This document shows positions 25,096 through 64,000 of a stretch of DNA of 64,000 bases, one piece after another. The stretch is from IMG/VR virus record IMGVR_UViG_3300045988_126367. One strand, given 5' to 3'. Under the pieces are notes generated by a model. The model was not told the origin of the DNA, searched no databases, and worked only from the letters and a program-made list of their open reading frames with translations. Each line of letters opens with the position of its first letter. The first letter of the stretch is position 1. Origin of the DNA: a virus. The position numbers and the translations under genes were made by a program.

Positions 25096-25189
25096 GCACC
25101 CCAAGGGTACTTGTTTCACTGCGGGGGCAGGCCGCCCTACACACCAACCACCGATAAACCGCCGTAGGGCGGGGTGCCCTCACCCCGCC
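25096..25189. repeat. REP-like hairpin cluster R1
   Basis: inverted long module ending CCCTAC, then GTAG-GGCGGGGTG-CCCT-CACCCCGCC (hairpin 25168-25189). Confidence 0.8.
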
Positions 25190-25213
25190 GCCAGACAGAA
25201 AGGAGCCGCCACC

Positions 25214-25366
25214 ATGCGCCAGACCTTCAAAATATGCACCACCGCCGCCGAGCTGGAACAGTTTACCGCCGATCTCCGCCGACGCCGCCGAAAATATCAT
25301 GTCACCCCCTGGAGCAGCCCCGACCGCCGCGAAACCGGCTTTGTCGTCTGGTACTTCACCCGCTGA
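25214..25366 (+). CDS. small hypothetical protein (50 aa)
   Basis: AGAAAGGAGCC RBS then MRQTFKICTTAAELEQF. Confidence 0.4.
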   Translation: MRQTFKICTTAAELEQFTADLRRRRRKYHVTPWSSPDRRETGFVVWYFTR

Positions 25367-25382
25367 CCGTGAAAATATCCGG

Positions 25383-25460
25383 CGGGCTGTCGAGGACGCC
25401 AGCCCCTACGCACCAGCCACCGAAAGAACGCCGTAGGGGGCGGCGTCCCCGACGCCCCGT
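25383..25460. repeat. REP-like hairpin cluster R2
   Basis: GGGCTGTCGAGGACGCCAGCCCCTAC (inverted) and GTAGGGGGCGGCGTCCCCGACGCCCC. Confidence 0.8.
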
Positions 25461-25492
25461 CAAACCCAACCAAAACTTGAAAGGAGCCGCCC

Positions 25493-25726
25493 ATGCTCAA
25501 CCGCTATCAAGTCGTCACCTGGTCCCGCGATACCGGCGCGGATGAAAAAATGGACTTCACCCGAAAAGCGGACGCCATCCGCCACGCCCGCAGCTTCCGC
25601 AAAATCGAGGACTACGCAGCCGTATACGACGCGGCCACGAAAACAGCCACCGTCATTTTCGGCAATCTCTACACCCCCGTTTTCGCGGACTTTGTGACCG
25701 TCCGCCCACTCCGCCCCGCACATTGA
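25493..25726 (+). CDS. hypothetical protein
   Basis: 77-aa ORF after GAAAGGAGCC. Confidence 0.5.
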   Translation: MLNRYQVVTWSRDTGADEKMDFTRKADAIRHARSFRKIEDYAAVYDAATKTATVIFGNLYTPVFADFVTVRPLRPAH

Positions 25727-25784
25727 CACGGGGCATATGATCACCACGACACACGAAACGAAATCTTGAAGGGAGAAAATCAAA

Positions 25785-61094: not shown

Positions 61095-61119
61095 GTCTGT
61101 TCACTCTCCTCTCTCTGAA

Positions 61120-61752
61120 TCAGCCGCCAGCGGGCACGGTGTCCACCTTGCAGGCCATCAGGTCGTAATAGTTGAAAGCGCTCTGCGCACCTTCGGTGAA
61201 AACGCCGGTGTCCAGCAGCTTGAAGTACGGGGTGCCCGCAGCGGTGGGAGCCGCGGCAGCGGGCACCAGCAGACCATCCTTGATGGTGAAGAAGGTGTTG
61301 CTGCCGATGGTGCCGTTCACGTTGCCCTCACCGAAGCGGTAGATGCGTCCGCCCCGGAAGTCGATGCGTGTAAAGGTCACGTTCCAGCCCTTGGGGGCGG
61401 GCAGACCCAGGGTGTTGGCGCCCACCTTGTACAGATTGCCGGTCACGGGATCCTCCACCATGTTCACCTCATAGGTGTTGCAGGCGTAGATGCCGGTTCC
61501 TTCGCTCACCACGGTGCCGGTGGCCTTCATAACCCAGCTGTTGCCGTTTTTCAGGGTCACCTGGCTGCCGCTGGGGCCAAGGTTCTCATAGCCGTCGCAG
61601 TTCAGCAGGCTGTCCTCCACGCACAGGAACCCGGCACTGCAGGTCTCCTCCGCGTCGCTGGCGTTGTGGAATCGTCCGGTGATGTTCAGCGTCTCGCCAA
61701 ACACGCGGTCACTCACGCGGGGCCAAAATGCGGTTTTTTCGATATAAGCCAT
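61120..61752 (-). CDS. hypothetical head-module protein
   Basis: 210-aa ORF between scaffold-like and capsid-like genes. Confidence 0.45.
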   Translation of the reverse strand: MAYIEKTAFWPRVSDRVFGETLNITGRFHNASDAEETCSAGFLCVEDSLLNCDGYENLGPSGSQVTLKNGNSWVMKATGTVVSEGTGIYACNTYEVNMVEDPVTGNLYKVGANTLGLPAPKGWNVTFTRIDFRGGRIYRFGEGNVNGTIGSNTFFTIKDGLLVPAAAAPTAAGTPYFKLLDTGVFTEGAQSAFNYYDLMACKVDTVPAGG

Positions 61753-61779
61753 GTCTTGTCACTCTCCTTCTTTTCGTTT

Positions 61780-63156
61780 TCAGGCGTTCTTGCCGATGCG
61801 GCTCAGCATCCCGGCAATGCCGCTCTCCGCGCCGCCGTTACCCTTGGCGTTGTTCCAGGCGTAGGCGTTCTTGTGGCTCTCCGCCTGCTTGCGGTCGGCC
61901 TCCATCACGGCCTCGCCGCACACCGCCAGCACGGCTCTGCGCACCTGCTCCTCGCCGGTCCACTTGCCGTCCTTGTCGGCGCAGTTGGTGTAAACGCCCC
62001 CCTCAATGTCGGTCTCAATGGCCTTAATGGCCTCCTCCGCCACCTTGTCGGCGCGGTTGGCGTTGAAGCTTGCCAGCGTCGCCTTGGCGGCTGCCTTGCA
62101 GGCTTCCACCCTGCGCAGGTTCTCCGCCTCCTGCATGGCGCGGATCTGTTCCTTCGCGCTTGCCAGCTCGTCAGAAAGCTGCTTCACGCTGCCGTCGGTG
62201 GTCTTGGTGGCCGCCACGGTGTAGTCCACCACGTCGGCCACATCCGCGTTCAGCTCCACCTCGCCCACAGTCAGCACAATGTGCGCGGCACTCAGCGGGG
62301 CGATCCTGCGCTCCGTCACTTCGCCGTTGTCATCCGCGTTAAAGGTGTAGCCAAACAGGTTGCCGGAGGCGTCCAGCAGCGCCACATTCAGCCCGTCCTC
62401 GCTCATGGAAAGCACCTTGTGGTTGGGGAATTTGGCCTGCATCTGCTCCATCATCCGCTTGTTCATGGTTTTTCTCAGTCCTTTCTTGTTTGGTGTCGCG
62501 CTGCCATTTTCAGCGGCTGTGTGCAGCGCCGCGGCCCGCAGTTTCAGTGTCTTGAATTCCTCCTGCATGGCTGCCAGTCTTGCGATGTCCGCGCCAGGAA
62601 TGGCGGGGTTTACCCTGTCGCCCAGGATCGTCACGCCCAGGCCCTTCCACTCCGTGAACACGTCCACGTCGCCTTCCTCGTGGCTCTCCGTGACCTCCGT
62701 TTCGGCGGAAACGTCCATCGTCCCCTCCTCCACGATCTTCGCCACCAGCTCCGGCGCGTAAAAAGCAAACAGCCGCCCCTTCGCTCTCAGCCACATATGA
62801 CCGTCCCTTTCCACAAGGGTAAAGTCCTTCTCATCCTCCGACAGCGTTCCCACAATCCGCTCCGCCGTCGCGTCGGTAAAGGAGTAGTACTCCTTTCCGG
62901 TTTTCGGGTCCCAGCGCTTCGCCATGTTGTGGCCGTCGCCCACCTGGTTCCCCACATAGGCCACCAGCAGCGGCTGCCCCAGGAACGTCAGGTAGTGCTG
63001 CCGCAGGTTCTGGTAATTCCAGCGGTTCCGGTTCACGCCCTCCCGCAAGACCCACAGCTCCACGCCGAACTCATATTCGTTCAGCCTCTGCAGCACCTTC
63101 AATGTGCCGCACACGCCCTGTCTTGCGGGCATGGCCCTGGTTTTCAGTCCGCTCAT
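61780..63156 (-). CDS. putative prohead protease/scaffold fusion (XkdF/DUF2213-like N-terminus, coiled-coil C-terminus)
   Basis: 458 aa; N-terminal LREGVNRNRWNYQNL...GQPLLVAYVGNQVGDGH and a C-terminal Ala/Glu-rich coiled coil. Confidence 0.45.
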   Translation of the reverse strand: MSGLKTRAMPARQGVCGTLKVLQRLNEYEFGVELWVLREGVNRNRWNYQNLRQHYLTFLGQPLLVAYVGNQVGDGHNMAKRWDPKTGKEYYSFTDATAERIVGTLSEDEKDFTLVERDGHMWLRAKGRLFAFYAPELVAKIVEEGTMDVSAETEVTESHEEGDVDVFTEWKGLGVTILGDRVNPAIPGADIARLAAMQEEFKTLKLRAAALHTAAENGSATPNKKGLRKTMNKRMMEQMQAKFPNHKVLSMSEDGLNVALLDASGNLFGYTFNADDNGEVTERRIAPLSAAHIVLTVGEVELNADVADVVDYTVAATKTTDGSVKQLSDELASAKEQIRAMQEAENLRRVEACKAAAKATLASFNANRADKVAEEAIKAIETDIEGGVYTNCADKDGKWTGEEQVRRAVLAVCGEAVMEADRKQAESHKNAYAWNNAKGNGGAESGIAGMLSRIGKNA

Positions 63157-63689
63157 TCGTCCTCACCGCCTTCAAAGTGCTCCCTGCACCAGCTGTCAAA
63201 GGTGGCGCGGCTCATTTCTCCGTTGTCCCACATGGCCCAGGCTTCCAGCAGCTTGCGCCGGTCATCGGTGTTCACCACCTGCAGCTCCTCCGCTTTCAGC
63301 GACAGCGCGTTGAATTCTCCGTCCGCCGTCTTCCGGATAAAGTCGCCCAGCGCCTCATCCACGCTGTCCACAATGGTCACGCACACCTCAAACACCCGGT
63401 CCAGGTCGTTGTTGAAATCCTCGTCCAGCTCCGGTGTGCCGGGGTAAGGCAGCCGCAGATGGTAGTCGTGGGGGATCTCCGCAAACTCGTCCACCCGCTC
63501 CGGCTGCACATGCTCCAGCTTGTGGATCGCGTCCGAAAGGAACGGCATCCCCATGTCGCACAGCACTCTGTCCTTGATGTCGGCAAACCACTTTTCCGCG
63601 TTGCCGTAGGCTTCCATCACCCGGCGCACCGGCTGTTTCAGCGGTGCGAATCTGGGGTTATCCCAGCTGGCGTATTCTCTCGCCCTCAT
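63153..63689 (-). CDS. hypothetical head-module protein
   Basis: start MRAREYASWDNPRF after GGGAGAGGAAGTGAGG. Confidence 0.45.
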   Translation of the reverse strand: MRAREYASWDNPRFAPLKQPVRRVMEAYGNAEKWFADIKDRVLCDMGMPFLSDAIHKLEHVQPERVDEFAEIPHDYHLRLPYPGTPELDEDFNNDLDRVFEVCVTIVDSVDEALGDFIRKTADGEFNALSLKAEELQVVNTDDRRKLLEAWAMWDNGEMSRATFDSWCREHFEGGEDE

Positions 63690-63819
63690 GTCCTCACTTC
63701 CTCTCCCATCGAAATAGAAAAATGGAGCCGCCGCCCGTGGATCTCCACCGGCGTTGGCCCCATTTGGCTCTCCCCCGCGGCCCCTTGCCGCGGCTATTTC
63801 ATTGTCATTCCGCACCCTT

Positions 63820-64000
63820 CGTAGGGGCGGCGTCCTCGACGCCCCGTCGGCGCGTTAAGAAAATATGCCAGTGGCATATTTTTAGCGCCGATCTCAGCGG
63901 CTATGCCGCTGTAGCATCCATCTCGGCTTCCACCGCACTTCTCAAGCCTCCCTTGTGTAAAGGCGCCCCAGTGCGCACACTGGGGTGTGCACAGCTGAGG
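63820..64000. repeat. REP-like mosaic cluster R15 (runs to window end)
   Basis: GTAGGGGCGGCGTCCTCGACGCCCC, AAAATATGCC-AGTG-GCATATTTT module, degenerate two-hairpin module. Confidence 0.8.

Follow-up and report, generated by a model that had tools for sequence, protein, structure and literature searches.

The GTAG-headed hairpins of this temperate phage are probably REP/BIME-type repeats of the GTAG-tagged superfamily that came from the chromosomes of gut Oscillospiraceae and colonized the phage genome. The window (the whole 64-kb stretch of DNA analyzed) represents part of a circular map of 76,718 bp (~77 kb), and 12.7 kb of the phage lies outside it. Repeats occupy gene junctions across half of the phage genome, in one contiguous arc. 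To our knowledge prophages are normally without such repeats, which makes a REP-filled phage unusual. Colonization by REP/BIME-type elements had been proposed in a preliminary description of this DNA, and it is supported by the dispersal of the modules in host genomes, the RAYT-like gene found there, and the REP-free state of related phages. Host loci here are Oscillospiraceae genome stretches that carry the modules, and not an assigned host of this phage.

The hairpins were evaluated with a strict scan (GTAG, up to 4 nt, a stem of 7 bp or more with no more than one mismatch, and a loop of 3–9 nt). The unpaired GTAG at the 5′ foot of a hairpin that characterizes REPs was found 25 times, compared to 1.1 ± 1.0 in 100 dinucleotide shuffles (maximum 5), and control 4-mer heads gave only 4–9 matches each in the same scan. 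Twenty-four of these matches were located at 25164–56484, all reading GTAGGG. The lone match before 25 kb, a GTAGGC at 4643 within RecT, looks like chance, which is consistent with the reported absence of the modules from the first 25 kb. GTAGGG itself occurred 41 times against an expectation of 19.2 ± 4.5, a count reached in 0 of 100 shuffles. With long-loop, truncated, and ATAGGG variants included, the full count gave 35 intergenic heads in 15 clusters (R1–R15) between 25.1 and 64 kb, close to the number first estimated by eye, and besides these heads there were 10 copies of module E. The + strand carried 31 of the 35 heads and nine of the 10 E copies, in the + transcription block (25–36.5 kb) and the − block (36.8–64 kb) alike; the earlier statement that modules occur in both orientations was not borne out.

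Modules A–E were all recovered as repeat families (D1–D16). The REP modules A, B, and C have 9-bp stems and D has an 8-bp stem, with loops of 4–5 nt. Single-strand DNA folding of modules A–E beat that of shuffled sequences with z from −3.8 to −5.7 (−3.8 to −4.7 for the REP modules A–D, indicative of stable stem-loops). Module E is indeed a composite hairpin, as had been described, although it is a longer bipartite one with an outer stem of TCGGNNC/GNNCCGA, in which NN covaries, and with T-runs after the inner stem on both strands. When 15 E copies were aligned, pairing held in 94% of the cells, compared to 36–53% with partners slid; six pairs had changed on both sides, and the covariation score was reached by 0 of 500 shuffles for a structure derived from the same sequences. 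Two double pair swaps (C-G to G-C, T-A to C-G) separate module B from module C, and a G.A mismatch is common to both; together with the covariation in E, this upholds the idea of stem-preserving substitution. The long variant of module A exists, with a loop insertion of 27 nt rather than 30 nt, and REPs whose stems differ carry the insertion as well. One more module, the double hairpin F, had been overlooked. Conserved linkers are present between modules (family D5), and distant clusters share mosaic segments that are 93–97% identical over 82–164 nt (families D1, D2, and D13).

At the left end of the arc, R1 (25096–25189) is a head-to-head REP pair composed of a left REP on the − strand with a GGCCTG stem and the 27-nt loop insert, a 23-nt linker, and module A (+). 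R2 (25384–25458) is also head-to-head, with module B (−), a conserved linker, and module C (+). Together they flank a 50-aa ORF cassette (25215–25367), at whose edges homologous head-to-head REP pairs and a repeated CCGCTGACCGTGAAAA motif were observed; a relative (L009) has one REP pair and no ORF at this position, and its orthologue of the R1 pair is missing the 27-nt insert. Clusters R3 to R13 and R15 are assigned to the + strand. R3 (26376–26520) contains four head-to-tail REPs, namely D, A with the 27-nt loop insert, B, and a B-like REP with a GGCCGAC stem. The lone REP of R4 (26791–26815) has a GGGGCGGGG/CCCCGCCC stem, a variant that occurs nine times in host loci. In R5 (31143–31455), A is followed by a fusion of a truncated C head with E, then by a linker, A-long, an F-like hairpin, and an inverted REP (31431–31455, − strand), and R6 (32722–32772), directly downstream of the tRNA cluster, consists of A adjoining a D-like REP. 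R7 (33204–33422) is made up of C, E, a linker, A, and the F double hairpin, whereas R8 (33934–33958) is a lone module D upstream of the ribosome-binding site of an aminotransferase gene. An E-tail fragment, A, and a degenerate D with an ATAGGG head form R9 (35050–35174), located in the gap that separates the aminotransferase stop codon from the ribosome-binding site that follows. R10 (36548–36761; F, E, linker, A, B) sits between int2 and the convergent terminator and endolysin.

The remaining clusters lie in the − block. R11 (38669–39020) contains F, a fusion of a truncated B head with a partial E, a complete E, a linker, A-long, B, and an F-like hairpin; its positions 38805–38968 are 97% identical to 31213–31376 of R5 (family D2). 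R12 (44197–44449) is a 253-nt mosaic in which a fusion of a truncated head with E is followed by an E core, a linker, and A, and R13 (55077–55262) consists of B, E, a linker, A, and B. R14 (56263–56625) carries a near "double-foot" REP, an inverted long-loop REP (−), a linker, A, C, an F-like hairpin, and E (−). Finally, R15 (63821–63995), with a C-like REP, E, and an F-like hairpin, lies upstream of the packaging and portal genes, and 63824–63938 is 95% identical to 33208–33322 of R7 (family D1). Several clusters are followed by a small accessory ORF with a strong ribosome-binding site.

Window positions 25123→1, another 12.7 kb, and 64000→39264 are joined in independent contigs from two studies, as are 55211→64000→1→33290; the first 25 kb and the remainder therefore lie on one circular map. 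The preliminary description had taken the sharp boundary at 25 kb to argue for two histories or origins of the two halves. With the first 25 kb on the same ~76.7-kb circle, this inference is unsupported, and a REP-free relative (L193) has an identical gene order over 24–48 kb, the second integrase (int2) included. In the REP-poor arc a single module A was found, in frame inside a phage ORF outside the window. That the contig is a chimera in which phage and bacterial fragments were stitched through repeats is extremely improbable. Short-read assemblies do break at clusters (JGI contigs at R1, and ENA scaffold_154, which starts at 55211 in R13 and ends in R7), and one scaffold has a repeat-mediated join. 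However, the same clusters and flanks were recovered in JGI 3300029310, three ENA studies, and a Logan run, the contig ends of independent assemblies tile one consistent 76,718-bp circle, and a relative at 87% identity carries an orthologous REP pair at the same place.

The repeat load is specific to a lineage, being absent from near and more distant phage relatives alike. No GTAGGG hairpins were found in 126 related phage loci (2.1 Mb scanned), and these REP-free relatives supplied the empty sites that had been suggested for comparison. The boundary is exact for R12, where L193 reads ...TGTGAG|AAAGGCGG..., with the stop codon abutting the next ribosome-binding site; R12 is inserted precisely at this junction. 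Compared to L193, R9 corresponds to ~150 nt and R10 to ~220 nt of extra sequence. R13 together with a small ORF (55285–55485) accounts for ~460 nt missing from relatives. The small ORFs at 55285–55485 and 25215–25367 that accompany some insertions count against our main reading, and such insertions fit recombinational capture as well as they fit transposition.

These observations bear on a possible, though somewhat unlikely, alternative in which the repeats arrived as ready-made DNA of hosts or other phages through illegitimate or short-homology recombination, often with small cargo genes, and then spread by gene conversion between REP-bearing junctions. It would account for the two clusters that come with small ORFs missing from relatives, for the paired REPs and repeated motif bounding the 50-aa ORF cassette, for the near-identical mosaic segments in distant clusters, and for an 18.5-kb join in L002, whose partners R10 and R13 are connected via a 73-nt identical [B][A][linker] stretch. 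Pure-repeat insertions without cargo (44197–44449, ~150 nt at 35.1 kb, and ~220 nt at 36.6 kb), solitary REPs at 26791 and 33934, and the lone in-frame module A within a phage ORF argue against it. This alternative overlaps with colonization by REPs on the spreading step and differs only on the entry of the first copies. The clusters act as dispersed homology, as seen in a cassette gain or loss, the 18.5-kb join, and the assembly breaks. The consequences for the phage are mostly structural, since dispersed homology permits the gain or loss of small cassettes and large deletions.

Beyond this locus, the modules were dispersed across many bacterial genomes. Module A was present in at least 120 genome stretches of Gemmiger formicilis, Agathobaculum, Oscillibacter, Avoscillospira, and Butyricicoccus, and module B in at least 120 metagenome contigs, some of 100–426 kb, and in only two IMG/VR contigs. 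The Firmicute-like background that had been proposed agrees with this, the modules being apparently common in chromosomes of gut Oscillospiraceae (Clostridia). Module E was also identified in three host loci (L061, L109, L130). The host genome loci examined contained neither module B nor module F nor the head-to-head linker, which counts against our main reading. Across 0.86 Mb of host loci, chosen for module A, 473 GTAGG hairpins were identified, many with compensated stems. In these same loci, the hairpins favored convergent over divergent gaps (113 vs. 52), and strand bias was weak (61% of heads on the C-rich strand).

Three host loci (L017, L103, and L101) encode a divergent RAYT-like Y1 transposase, a 162–164-aa protein that has both an HUH motif (MPNHVHL) and a Y motif (SFYDHVIR). 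This protein matched NCBIfam REP_Tyr_transpos (NF047646) with E = 7e-17 and 61.8 bits, under the curated cut-off of 80, and scored weakly against Pfam Y1_Tnp. Two inverted copies of module A are embedded in frame in the gene (VGRGALTPP ... GGVRAPRPT), and among 533 homologues both embedded peptides change together, matching other REP stems. In-frame REPs within tnpA-REP genes have been described for TnpA-Y1 subclass 2.4 (PMC6006769), likewise in a small HUH/Y1 host gene. The search for Y1 genes linked to the modules thus yielded a RAYT-like gene in physical linkage with module A in host loci. Within the window, the 12.7 kb outside it, and at least 140 phage loci, neither tblastn nor the family HMM identified a RAYT, as had been noted for the window.

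The repeats probably belong among REP/BIME elements, as a new member found in an unusual place, a phage. Like the GTAG-tagged REP/RAYT systems of E. coli and Pseudomonas (PMC3733652, PMC6006769), they are G+C-rich hairpins of 25–26 nt with GTAG at the 5′ foot, three G-C pairs at the stem bottom, and many compensated stem variants; they are dispersed, apparently mostly extragenic, favor convergent gaps, and form head-to-head, tail-to-tail, and head-to-tail dimers. They differ in residing in a phage genome without its own RAYT, in that most copies are head-to-tail on one strand, and in a RAYT-like protein that falls under the curated family cut-off. GTAG repeats were found only in Proteobacteria, Cyanobacteria, Chloroflexi, and the PVC superphylum in a 2013 survey (PMC3733652), whereas the host phylum here is Bacillota (Oscillospiraceae). 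Similar to enterobacterial BIMEs, the mosaics use a small vocabulary of REP types and conserved linkers, and REP length variants differ in the loop, but they include the non-GTAG two-hairpin E and the double hairpin F. Classical BIMEs alternate REP orientation, a pattern limited here to R1, R2, and part of R14; orientation does alternate in the phage contigs L010 and L011. The head-to-head pairs of ~55–75 nt with a conserved spacer (R1, R2, R14) resemble REPINs (Bertels and Rainey). Classification as REPINs was rejected, as the pair arms belong to different stem classes and do not pair into a single long hairpin, and R1 as a unit folds no better than shuffles (z = −1.14). In published descriptions, REPIN–RAYT systems are inherited vertically, and horizontally mobile elements lack RAYTs.

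Other element classes were also considered. No terminal inverted repeats bound the mosaics, which rejects a MITE, and a check for target-site duplication at the 44.2-kb insert gave only a 4-nt CTCA match in its flanks, possibly by chance. A terminator scan listed only 32726–32747 (the 32.7-kb module A) among the REP modules and did not list E, which rejects an intrinsic terminator; the true convergent terminator (36817–36849) is a separate element. No cluster matched Rfam 15, in which only tRNAs and a tmRNA fragment were returned at E ≤ 1. In the PeSL cassettes of T4-type phages, reportedly described by Arbiol et al. in 2010, short stem-loop repeats are said to flank small accessory ORFs, to be phage-specific, to carry an early promoter, and to appear to mediate cassette shuffling by recombination. 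Stem-loop repeats beside small accessory ORFs are also seen here, but no promoter was found and the repeats are common to bacterial chromosomes.

A further explanation, which we regard as unlikely, is that the mosaics are regulatory cassettes selected by the phage. They would delimit transcript segments (3′-end protection, attenuation, or processing) or bind host proteins, being kept for the tuning of morons and late-operon segments, and their likeness to host REPs would reflect the use of the same host factors. Clusters occupy the exact junction of a stop codon and the following ribosome-binding site, preserving both, and this explanation would also suit their position before small accessory ORFs, the compensatory change that maintains stems, the T-runs 3′ of the inner stem of E, and the module A arrays between virion genes of the unrelated phages L010, L011, and L008. 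However, the 126 relatives function with the same gene order and without clusters, the clusters are not terminator-like, and bacterial chromosomes carry identical modules far more often than phages do. In addition, the GTAG head is on the same strand whichever way a gene block is transcribed, so the RNA would read GUAG-hairpin in one block and hairpin-CUAC in the other.

Under the favored reading of REPs colonizing the phage, the repeats would have been installed in trans while the phage was a prophage in RAYT-bearing hosts, at the few positions where genes stay unbroken, and composite blocks would then have been copied from junction to junction inside the phage. The conserved stems would reflect single-strand recognition by the transposase and not phage function, and the RNA of the clusters may buffer operon segments at their 3′ ends. 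Two features that simple seeding in trans does not predict, the nearly complete strand bias and the restriction to one arc, count against this reading, as do the head-to-tail arrangement of most clusters, unlike that of alternating classical BIMEs, and the low scores of the host RAYT-like protein. A more far-reaching version, which we consider rather doubtful, holds that the mosaics are self-propagating residents and the phage a horizontal vehicle for transposase-less REPs among Oscillospiraceae genera. The one-strand orientation would then record strand-specific, replication-coupled insertion, the mosaics would drive cassette exchange, and the nested 27-nt loop element would constitute a second tier of parasitism. 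If true, it would help explain the identical 26-nt modules observed across genera.

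The gene set of the window is of the temperate siphovirus type, with a G+C content of 57–63% and ribosome-binding sites of the AAAGGAG type. Replication and recombination genes (DnaB, a replisome organiser, RecT, and an antirepressor) lie on the minus strand at 1–10 kb, and an integrase (11830–12999) with a repressor lies at 11–13 kb. The accessory block on the plus strand (22.8–36.5 kb) encodes LPD25, Rha, four tRNAs, HU, an aminotransferase, and a second integrase, while the lysis, tail, and head genes occupy the minus strand at 36.8–64 kb. Independent assemblies and the window together tile a single circle with a map period of 76,718 bp. 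The JGI contig, 62.6 kb long, starts at window position 25123, goes down to 1, continues through 12.7 kb outside the window, and then covers 64000 to 39264; a 54.8-kb ENA scaffold runs from 55211 to 64000 and on from 1 to 33290. The ends of short-read contigs fall within repeat clusters, and an assembly artefact as the explanation of the repeats is hardly credible. The phage relative L193 is syntenic with the window from 48.6 to 24.1 kb (72–84% identical), a stretch that takes in the region of the second integrase, aminotransferase, HU, and tRNAs. Contig tiling and this synteny rule out two prophages in the window and speak against the preliminary description's separate origins for the first 25 kb and the rest. 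The synteny indicates that the accessory block is native to the phage family, and the absence of GTAGGG hairpins from L193 that the repeats are specific to a lineage.

GTAGGG occurred at twice its expected count in the window. A strict search of the window for GTAG plus a hairpin gave 25 matches, compared with 1.1 in shuffled sequences and four to nine for other tetranucleotide heads, and 24 of the 25 fell at 25,164–56,484. With long-loop, truncated, and one ATAGGG variant included, the intergenic heads numbered 35 in 15 clusters, as had been estimated by eye. Repeat finding recovered all five modules described earlier (A–E), which folded much better than shuffles. Modules B and C are one scaffold differing by two compensated pair swaps. 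Module E is larger than first drawn: besides an outer stem (TCGGNNC/GNNCCGA) it comprises an inner stem of 10 bp and a second hairpin of 7 bp. When 15 copies taken from the window and from bacterial loci were aligned, pairing held in 94% of cells, compared with 36–53% in slid controls, a contrast that is somewhat overstated because the structure was derived from the same sequences. Double changes were seen at six pairs of module E, with a covariation score reached by no shuffle; like the B/C swaps, these are the stem-preserving substitutions that had been proposed. Module F, a double hairpin overlooked in that first reading, consists of two adjacent units (GGCTCCCC-TTGT-GAGGGGAGC and GCACGGCG-TAT-GCCGTGAC), ends in TGAGGGG, and folds with z = −5.7. 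Its copies lie at 33366–33422, 36555–36612, and 38676–38731, with looser copies near 31376, 38998, 56484, and 63940; two phage contigs, L010 and L011, have it as well.

The "long variant" of module A does contain an extra segment, which proved to be a 27-nt insertion adjoining the loop. At least six different REP stems carry this conserved segment (GCAGTGAAACAAGTGCCCTTGGGGTAC) where the loop meets the 3' arm, and its orientation relative to GTAG can be either. In the window it occurs in REPs at 25096–25140, 26406–26457, 31323–31374, 38915–38966, and 56310–56376, and outside it in loci L007, L008, L074, L080, L082, L111, L130, and L277. It is present in a window REP and absent from the orthologous left REP of L009, a phage relative. 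Judged from these sequences, the segment behaves like a nested insertion targeting REP loops.

Comparison with related phages revealed empty sites. No GTAGGG hairpin was found in 126 loci (2.1 Mb) from phages with the same capsid or endolysin. At 44.2 kb the comparison was base-exact: L193 reads TGTGAG followed directly by AAAGGCGG, the stop codon standing immediately next to the ribosome-binding site, and the window carries a 253-nt mosaic at exactly this junction. Between the genes for virion proteins of 241 and 436 aa, relatives have a gap of ~35 nt, and the window has a 66-aa ORF and a mosaic. L009, which is closer (87% identical), has a single head-to-head pair at the place occupied in the window by a 50-aa ORF with a pair on either side. 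Base-exact boundaries at 35.1 and 36.6 kb were not obtained, as global pairwise alignments were too diverged.

Genome and metagenome scans excluded that the modules are confined to this locus. At least 120 stretches from species-representative genomes matched the exact module A pattern, their sources including Gemmiger formicilis, Agathobaculum butyriciproducens, Oscillibacter, Avoscillospira, Butyricicoccus, and many Oscillospiraceae MAGs. The 0.86 Mb of module-A-matching stretches listed held 473 hairpins headed by GTAGG, their stems falling into dozens of variants, and such hairpins in host loci were twice as frequent in convergent gaps as in divergent ones. Bacterial loci also contained module E and the loop insert. 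Module B was found in at least 120 metagenome contigs, some of 100–426 kb, and in only two IMG/VR contigs. Modules B and F and the head-to-head linker were not found in the module-A-selected genome loci, and no single assembly contained all of the modules, so that module content did not point to a host. Phages with such arrays are rare, with exact module A in 8 of 2.9 million IMG/VR contigs. The window is nevertheless not unique, since three or more further contigs of true phages carry module A arrays. These unrelated contigs (L010, L011, and L008), which encode a P22-like portal, capsid, and Gp10_C baseplate, carried 5–15 GTAGG-headed hairpins between virion genes, module A copies among them. 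In L010 and L011 REP orientation switches at intervals of about 55 nt, a pattern known from classical BIMEs. L008 additionally encodes an HUH Rep of the ORF2/G2P type.

Using tblastn (YafM/IS200 sequences and the host RAYT as queries) and an HMM of 120 homologues on six-frame translations, no RAYT-like sequence was detected in the window, as already noted, in the 12.7 kb beyond, or in more than 140 phage loci. Searching the bacterial loci for Y1 genes tied to the modules identified three module-A-selected loci encoding a protein of 162–164 residues with HUH and tyrosine motifs (L017 4887–5381, L103 4998–5486, and L101 6259–6727). It matched the NCBIfam "REP-associated tyrosine transposase" model with E = 7e-17, at 61.8 bits (below the curated 80), and Pfam Y1_Tnp weakly. 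Both module A matches of L017 lie within this gene, in frame and inverted, one on each side of the HUH motif, and the L103 and L101 genes are built likewise. In a set of 533 homologues the two embedded peptides covary (VGRGDHTPP/GGVWSPRPT; VGRDALIPP/GGMRASRPT; VGAGVLDGP/GPSRTPAPT, close to module B; and VGGGVLDAP, module C) and correspond to other genomic REP stems. In-frame REPs inside tnpA-REP genes are known for TnpA-Y1 subclass 2.4 (PMC6006769), a feature shared with these host genes. The window REP GTAGGGGCGGGCGACTTTGCCCGCCCTAT (56263–56291), with a 5' GTAG foot and a 3' near-complement CTAT, resembles the "double foot" REPs of the same subclass. A cognate RAYT for module B was not found: 122 B-selected loci yielded two RAYT-like genes (L276 and L375), neither with B.

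REPs serve as markers of old, stable chromosome. Prophages, islands, and mobile elements of Pseudomonas map to "REP deserts" (PMC3390384), and RAYTs are described as inherited vertically and reported to be missing from elements that move horizontally (bioRxiv 10.1101/2021.07.10.451892). The late operon and accessory region of this phage carry about one REP per kb, compared with none in the 126 relatives, giving dated insertions with matching empty sites. A survey of GTAG REPs covered Proteobacteria, Cyanobacteria, Chloroflexi, and the PVC superphylum, with Firmicutes not among them (PMC3733652), and we found no relevant literature on REPs in Faecalibacterium or Firmicutes. We rate the elements as a known kind (GTAG REP/BIME) in an unusual and useful setting. 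The explanation we consider likely is that, during lysogeny, REP/BIME elements of the host were installed in trans at permissive junctions of stop codon and ribosome-binding site. Their later spread within the phage would have involved composite blocks. A REP-laden phage is a possible route of REP spread between genera, and the system lets strand and site choice of REP insertion be read directly.

Mosaic segments at distant sites are 93–97% identical, and the clusters demonstrably act as dispersed homology. In an ENA scaffold (L002 17950–18110, from the same phage), the 55.2-kb flank is joined to the 36.7-kb flank via a 73-nt identical stretch (window 55190–55262 and 36689–36761). It reflects either a mis-join by the assembler or an 18.5-kb deletion variant that has lost the tail and lysis genes. 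Since short-read assemblies break at the clusters and become joined through their repeats, such phages are likely fragmented or mis-joined in virome catalogues. Entry of the repeats by recombinational capture rather than transposition, which overlaps with seeding from the host, is less likely. Regulatory structures selected by the phage are a less probable alternative still. The window's clusters were not terminator-like in a terminator scan, a true convergent terminator (36817–36849) is separate from them, and an Rfam scan of the whole window (E ≤ 1) placed no family over any module.

The modules had been described as occurring in both orientations; instead, the plus strand carries 31 of 35 heads and nine of ten E copies, whichever way genes are transcribed. 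Many clusters are copies of composite blocks, so that, counted independently, the bias is closer to 13 of 15 clusters. The plus strand is C-rich throughout the window, so the GTAG heads are mostly on the C-rich strand. Head orientation in host loci favored the C-rich strand by only 61:39, compared with the 31:4 bias of the phage, and REP orientation there had no relation to gene direction (86 sense vs. 72 antisense). GC skew was negative in all 2-kb bins of the window except one, irrespective of transcription direction, which suggests genome-wide replication-strand asymmetry. With one exception, the REPs are confined to one contiguous arc (25.1–63.9 kb). The other arc, of 37.8 kb, has one exact module A, outside the window and ~5 kb beyond DnaB (L182 16356–16381, a contig of the same phage). 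It lies in frame within a 185-aa phage ORF, where its peptide RRGEGTPPY joins two protein halves. The early region on L182 also encodes a 927-aa DNA methylase split by an intein with a LAGLIDADG domain (13103–15886).

An iteron-like 69-nt sequence, TATCTCTGACTC repeats followed by CCGTAACCGATTTCGCACGGTGTTGTAAC, occurs in two copies (87% identical), one within the replisome-organiser gene (3548–3634) and one (26846–26929) in a non-coding region at 26.8–27.4 kb that abounds in GTTACAAC repeats. The paired sequences suggest two putative origin-like sites. Beside the integrase, a 59-nt tmRNA-like sequence (13189–13247, minus strand) matches the ends of the tmRNA model, resembles a tmRNA 3' end, and closes with a terminator hairpin. 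It probably serves as the attP core for integration into ssrA. The four-tRNA cluster (31674–32443, plus strand; Phe-aaa, Arg-ccg, Ser-gga, and Gly-tcc by ARAGORN, three also matching Rfam) is flanked by REP clusters R5 (31143–31455) and R6 (32722–32772). A tRNA-like structure (59722–59807, minus strand) that matches Rfam tRNA-Sec at 38.6 bits, under the gathering score, and is not called by ARAGORN lies in the 261 nt that separate the capsid gene from the next virion gene.
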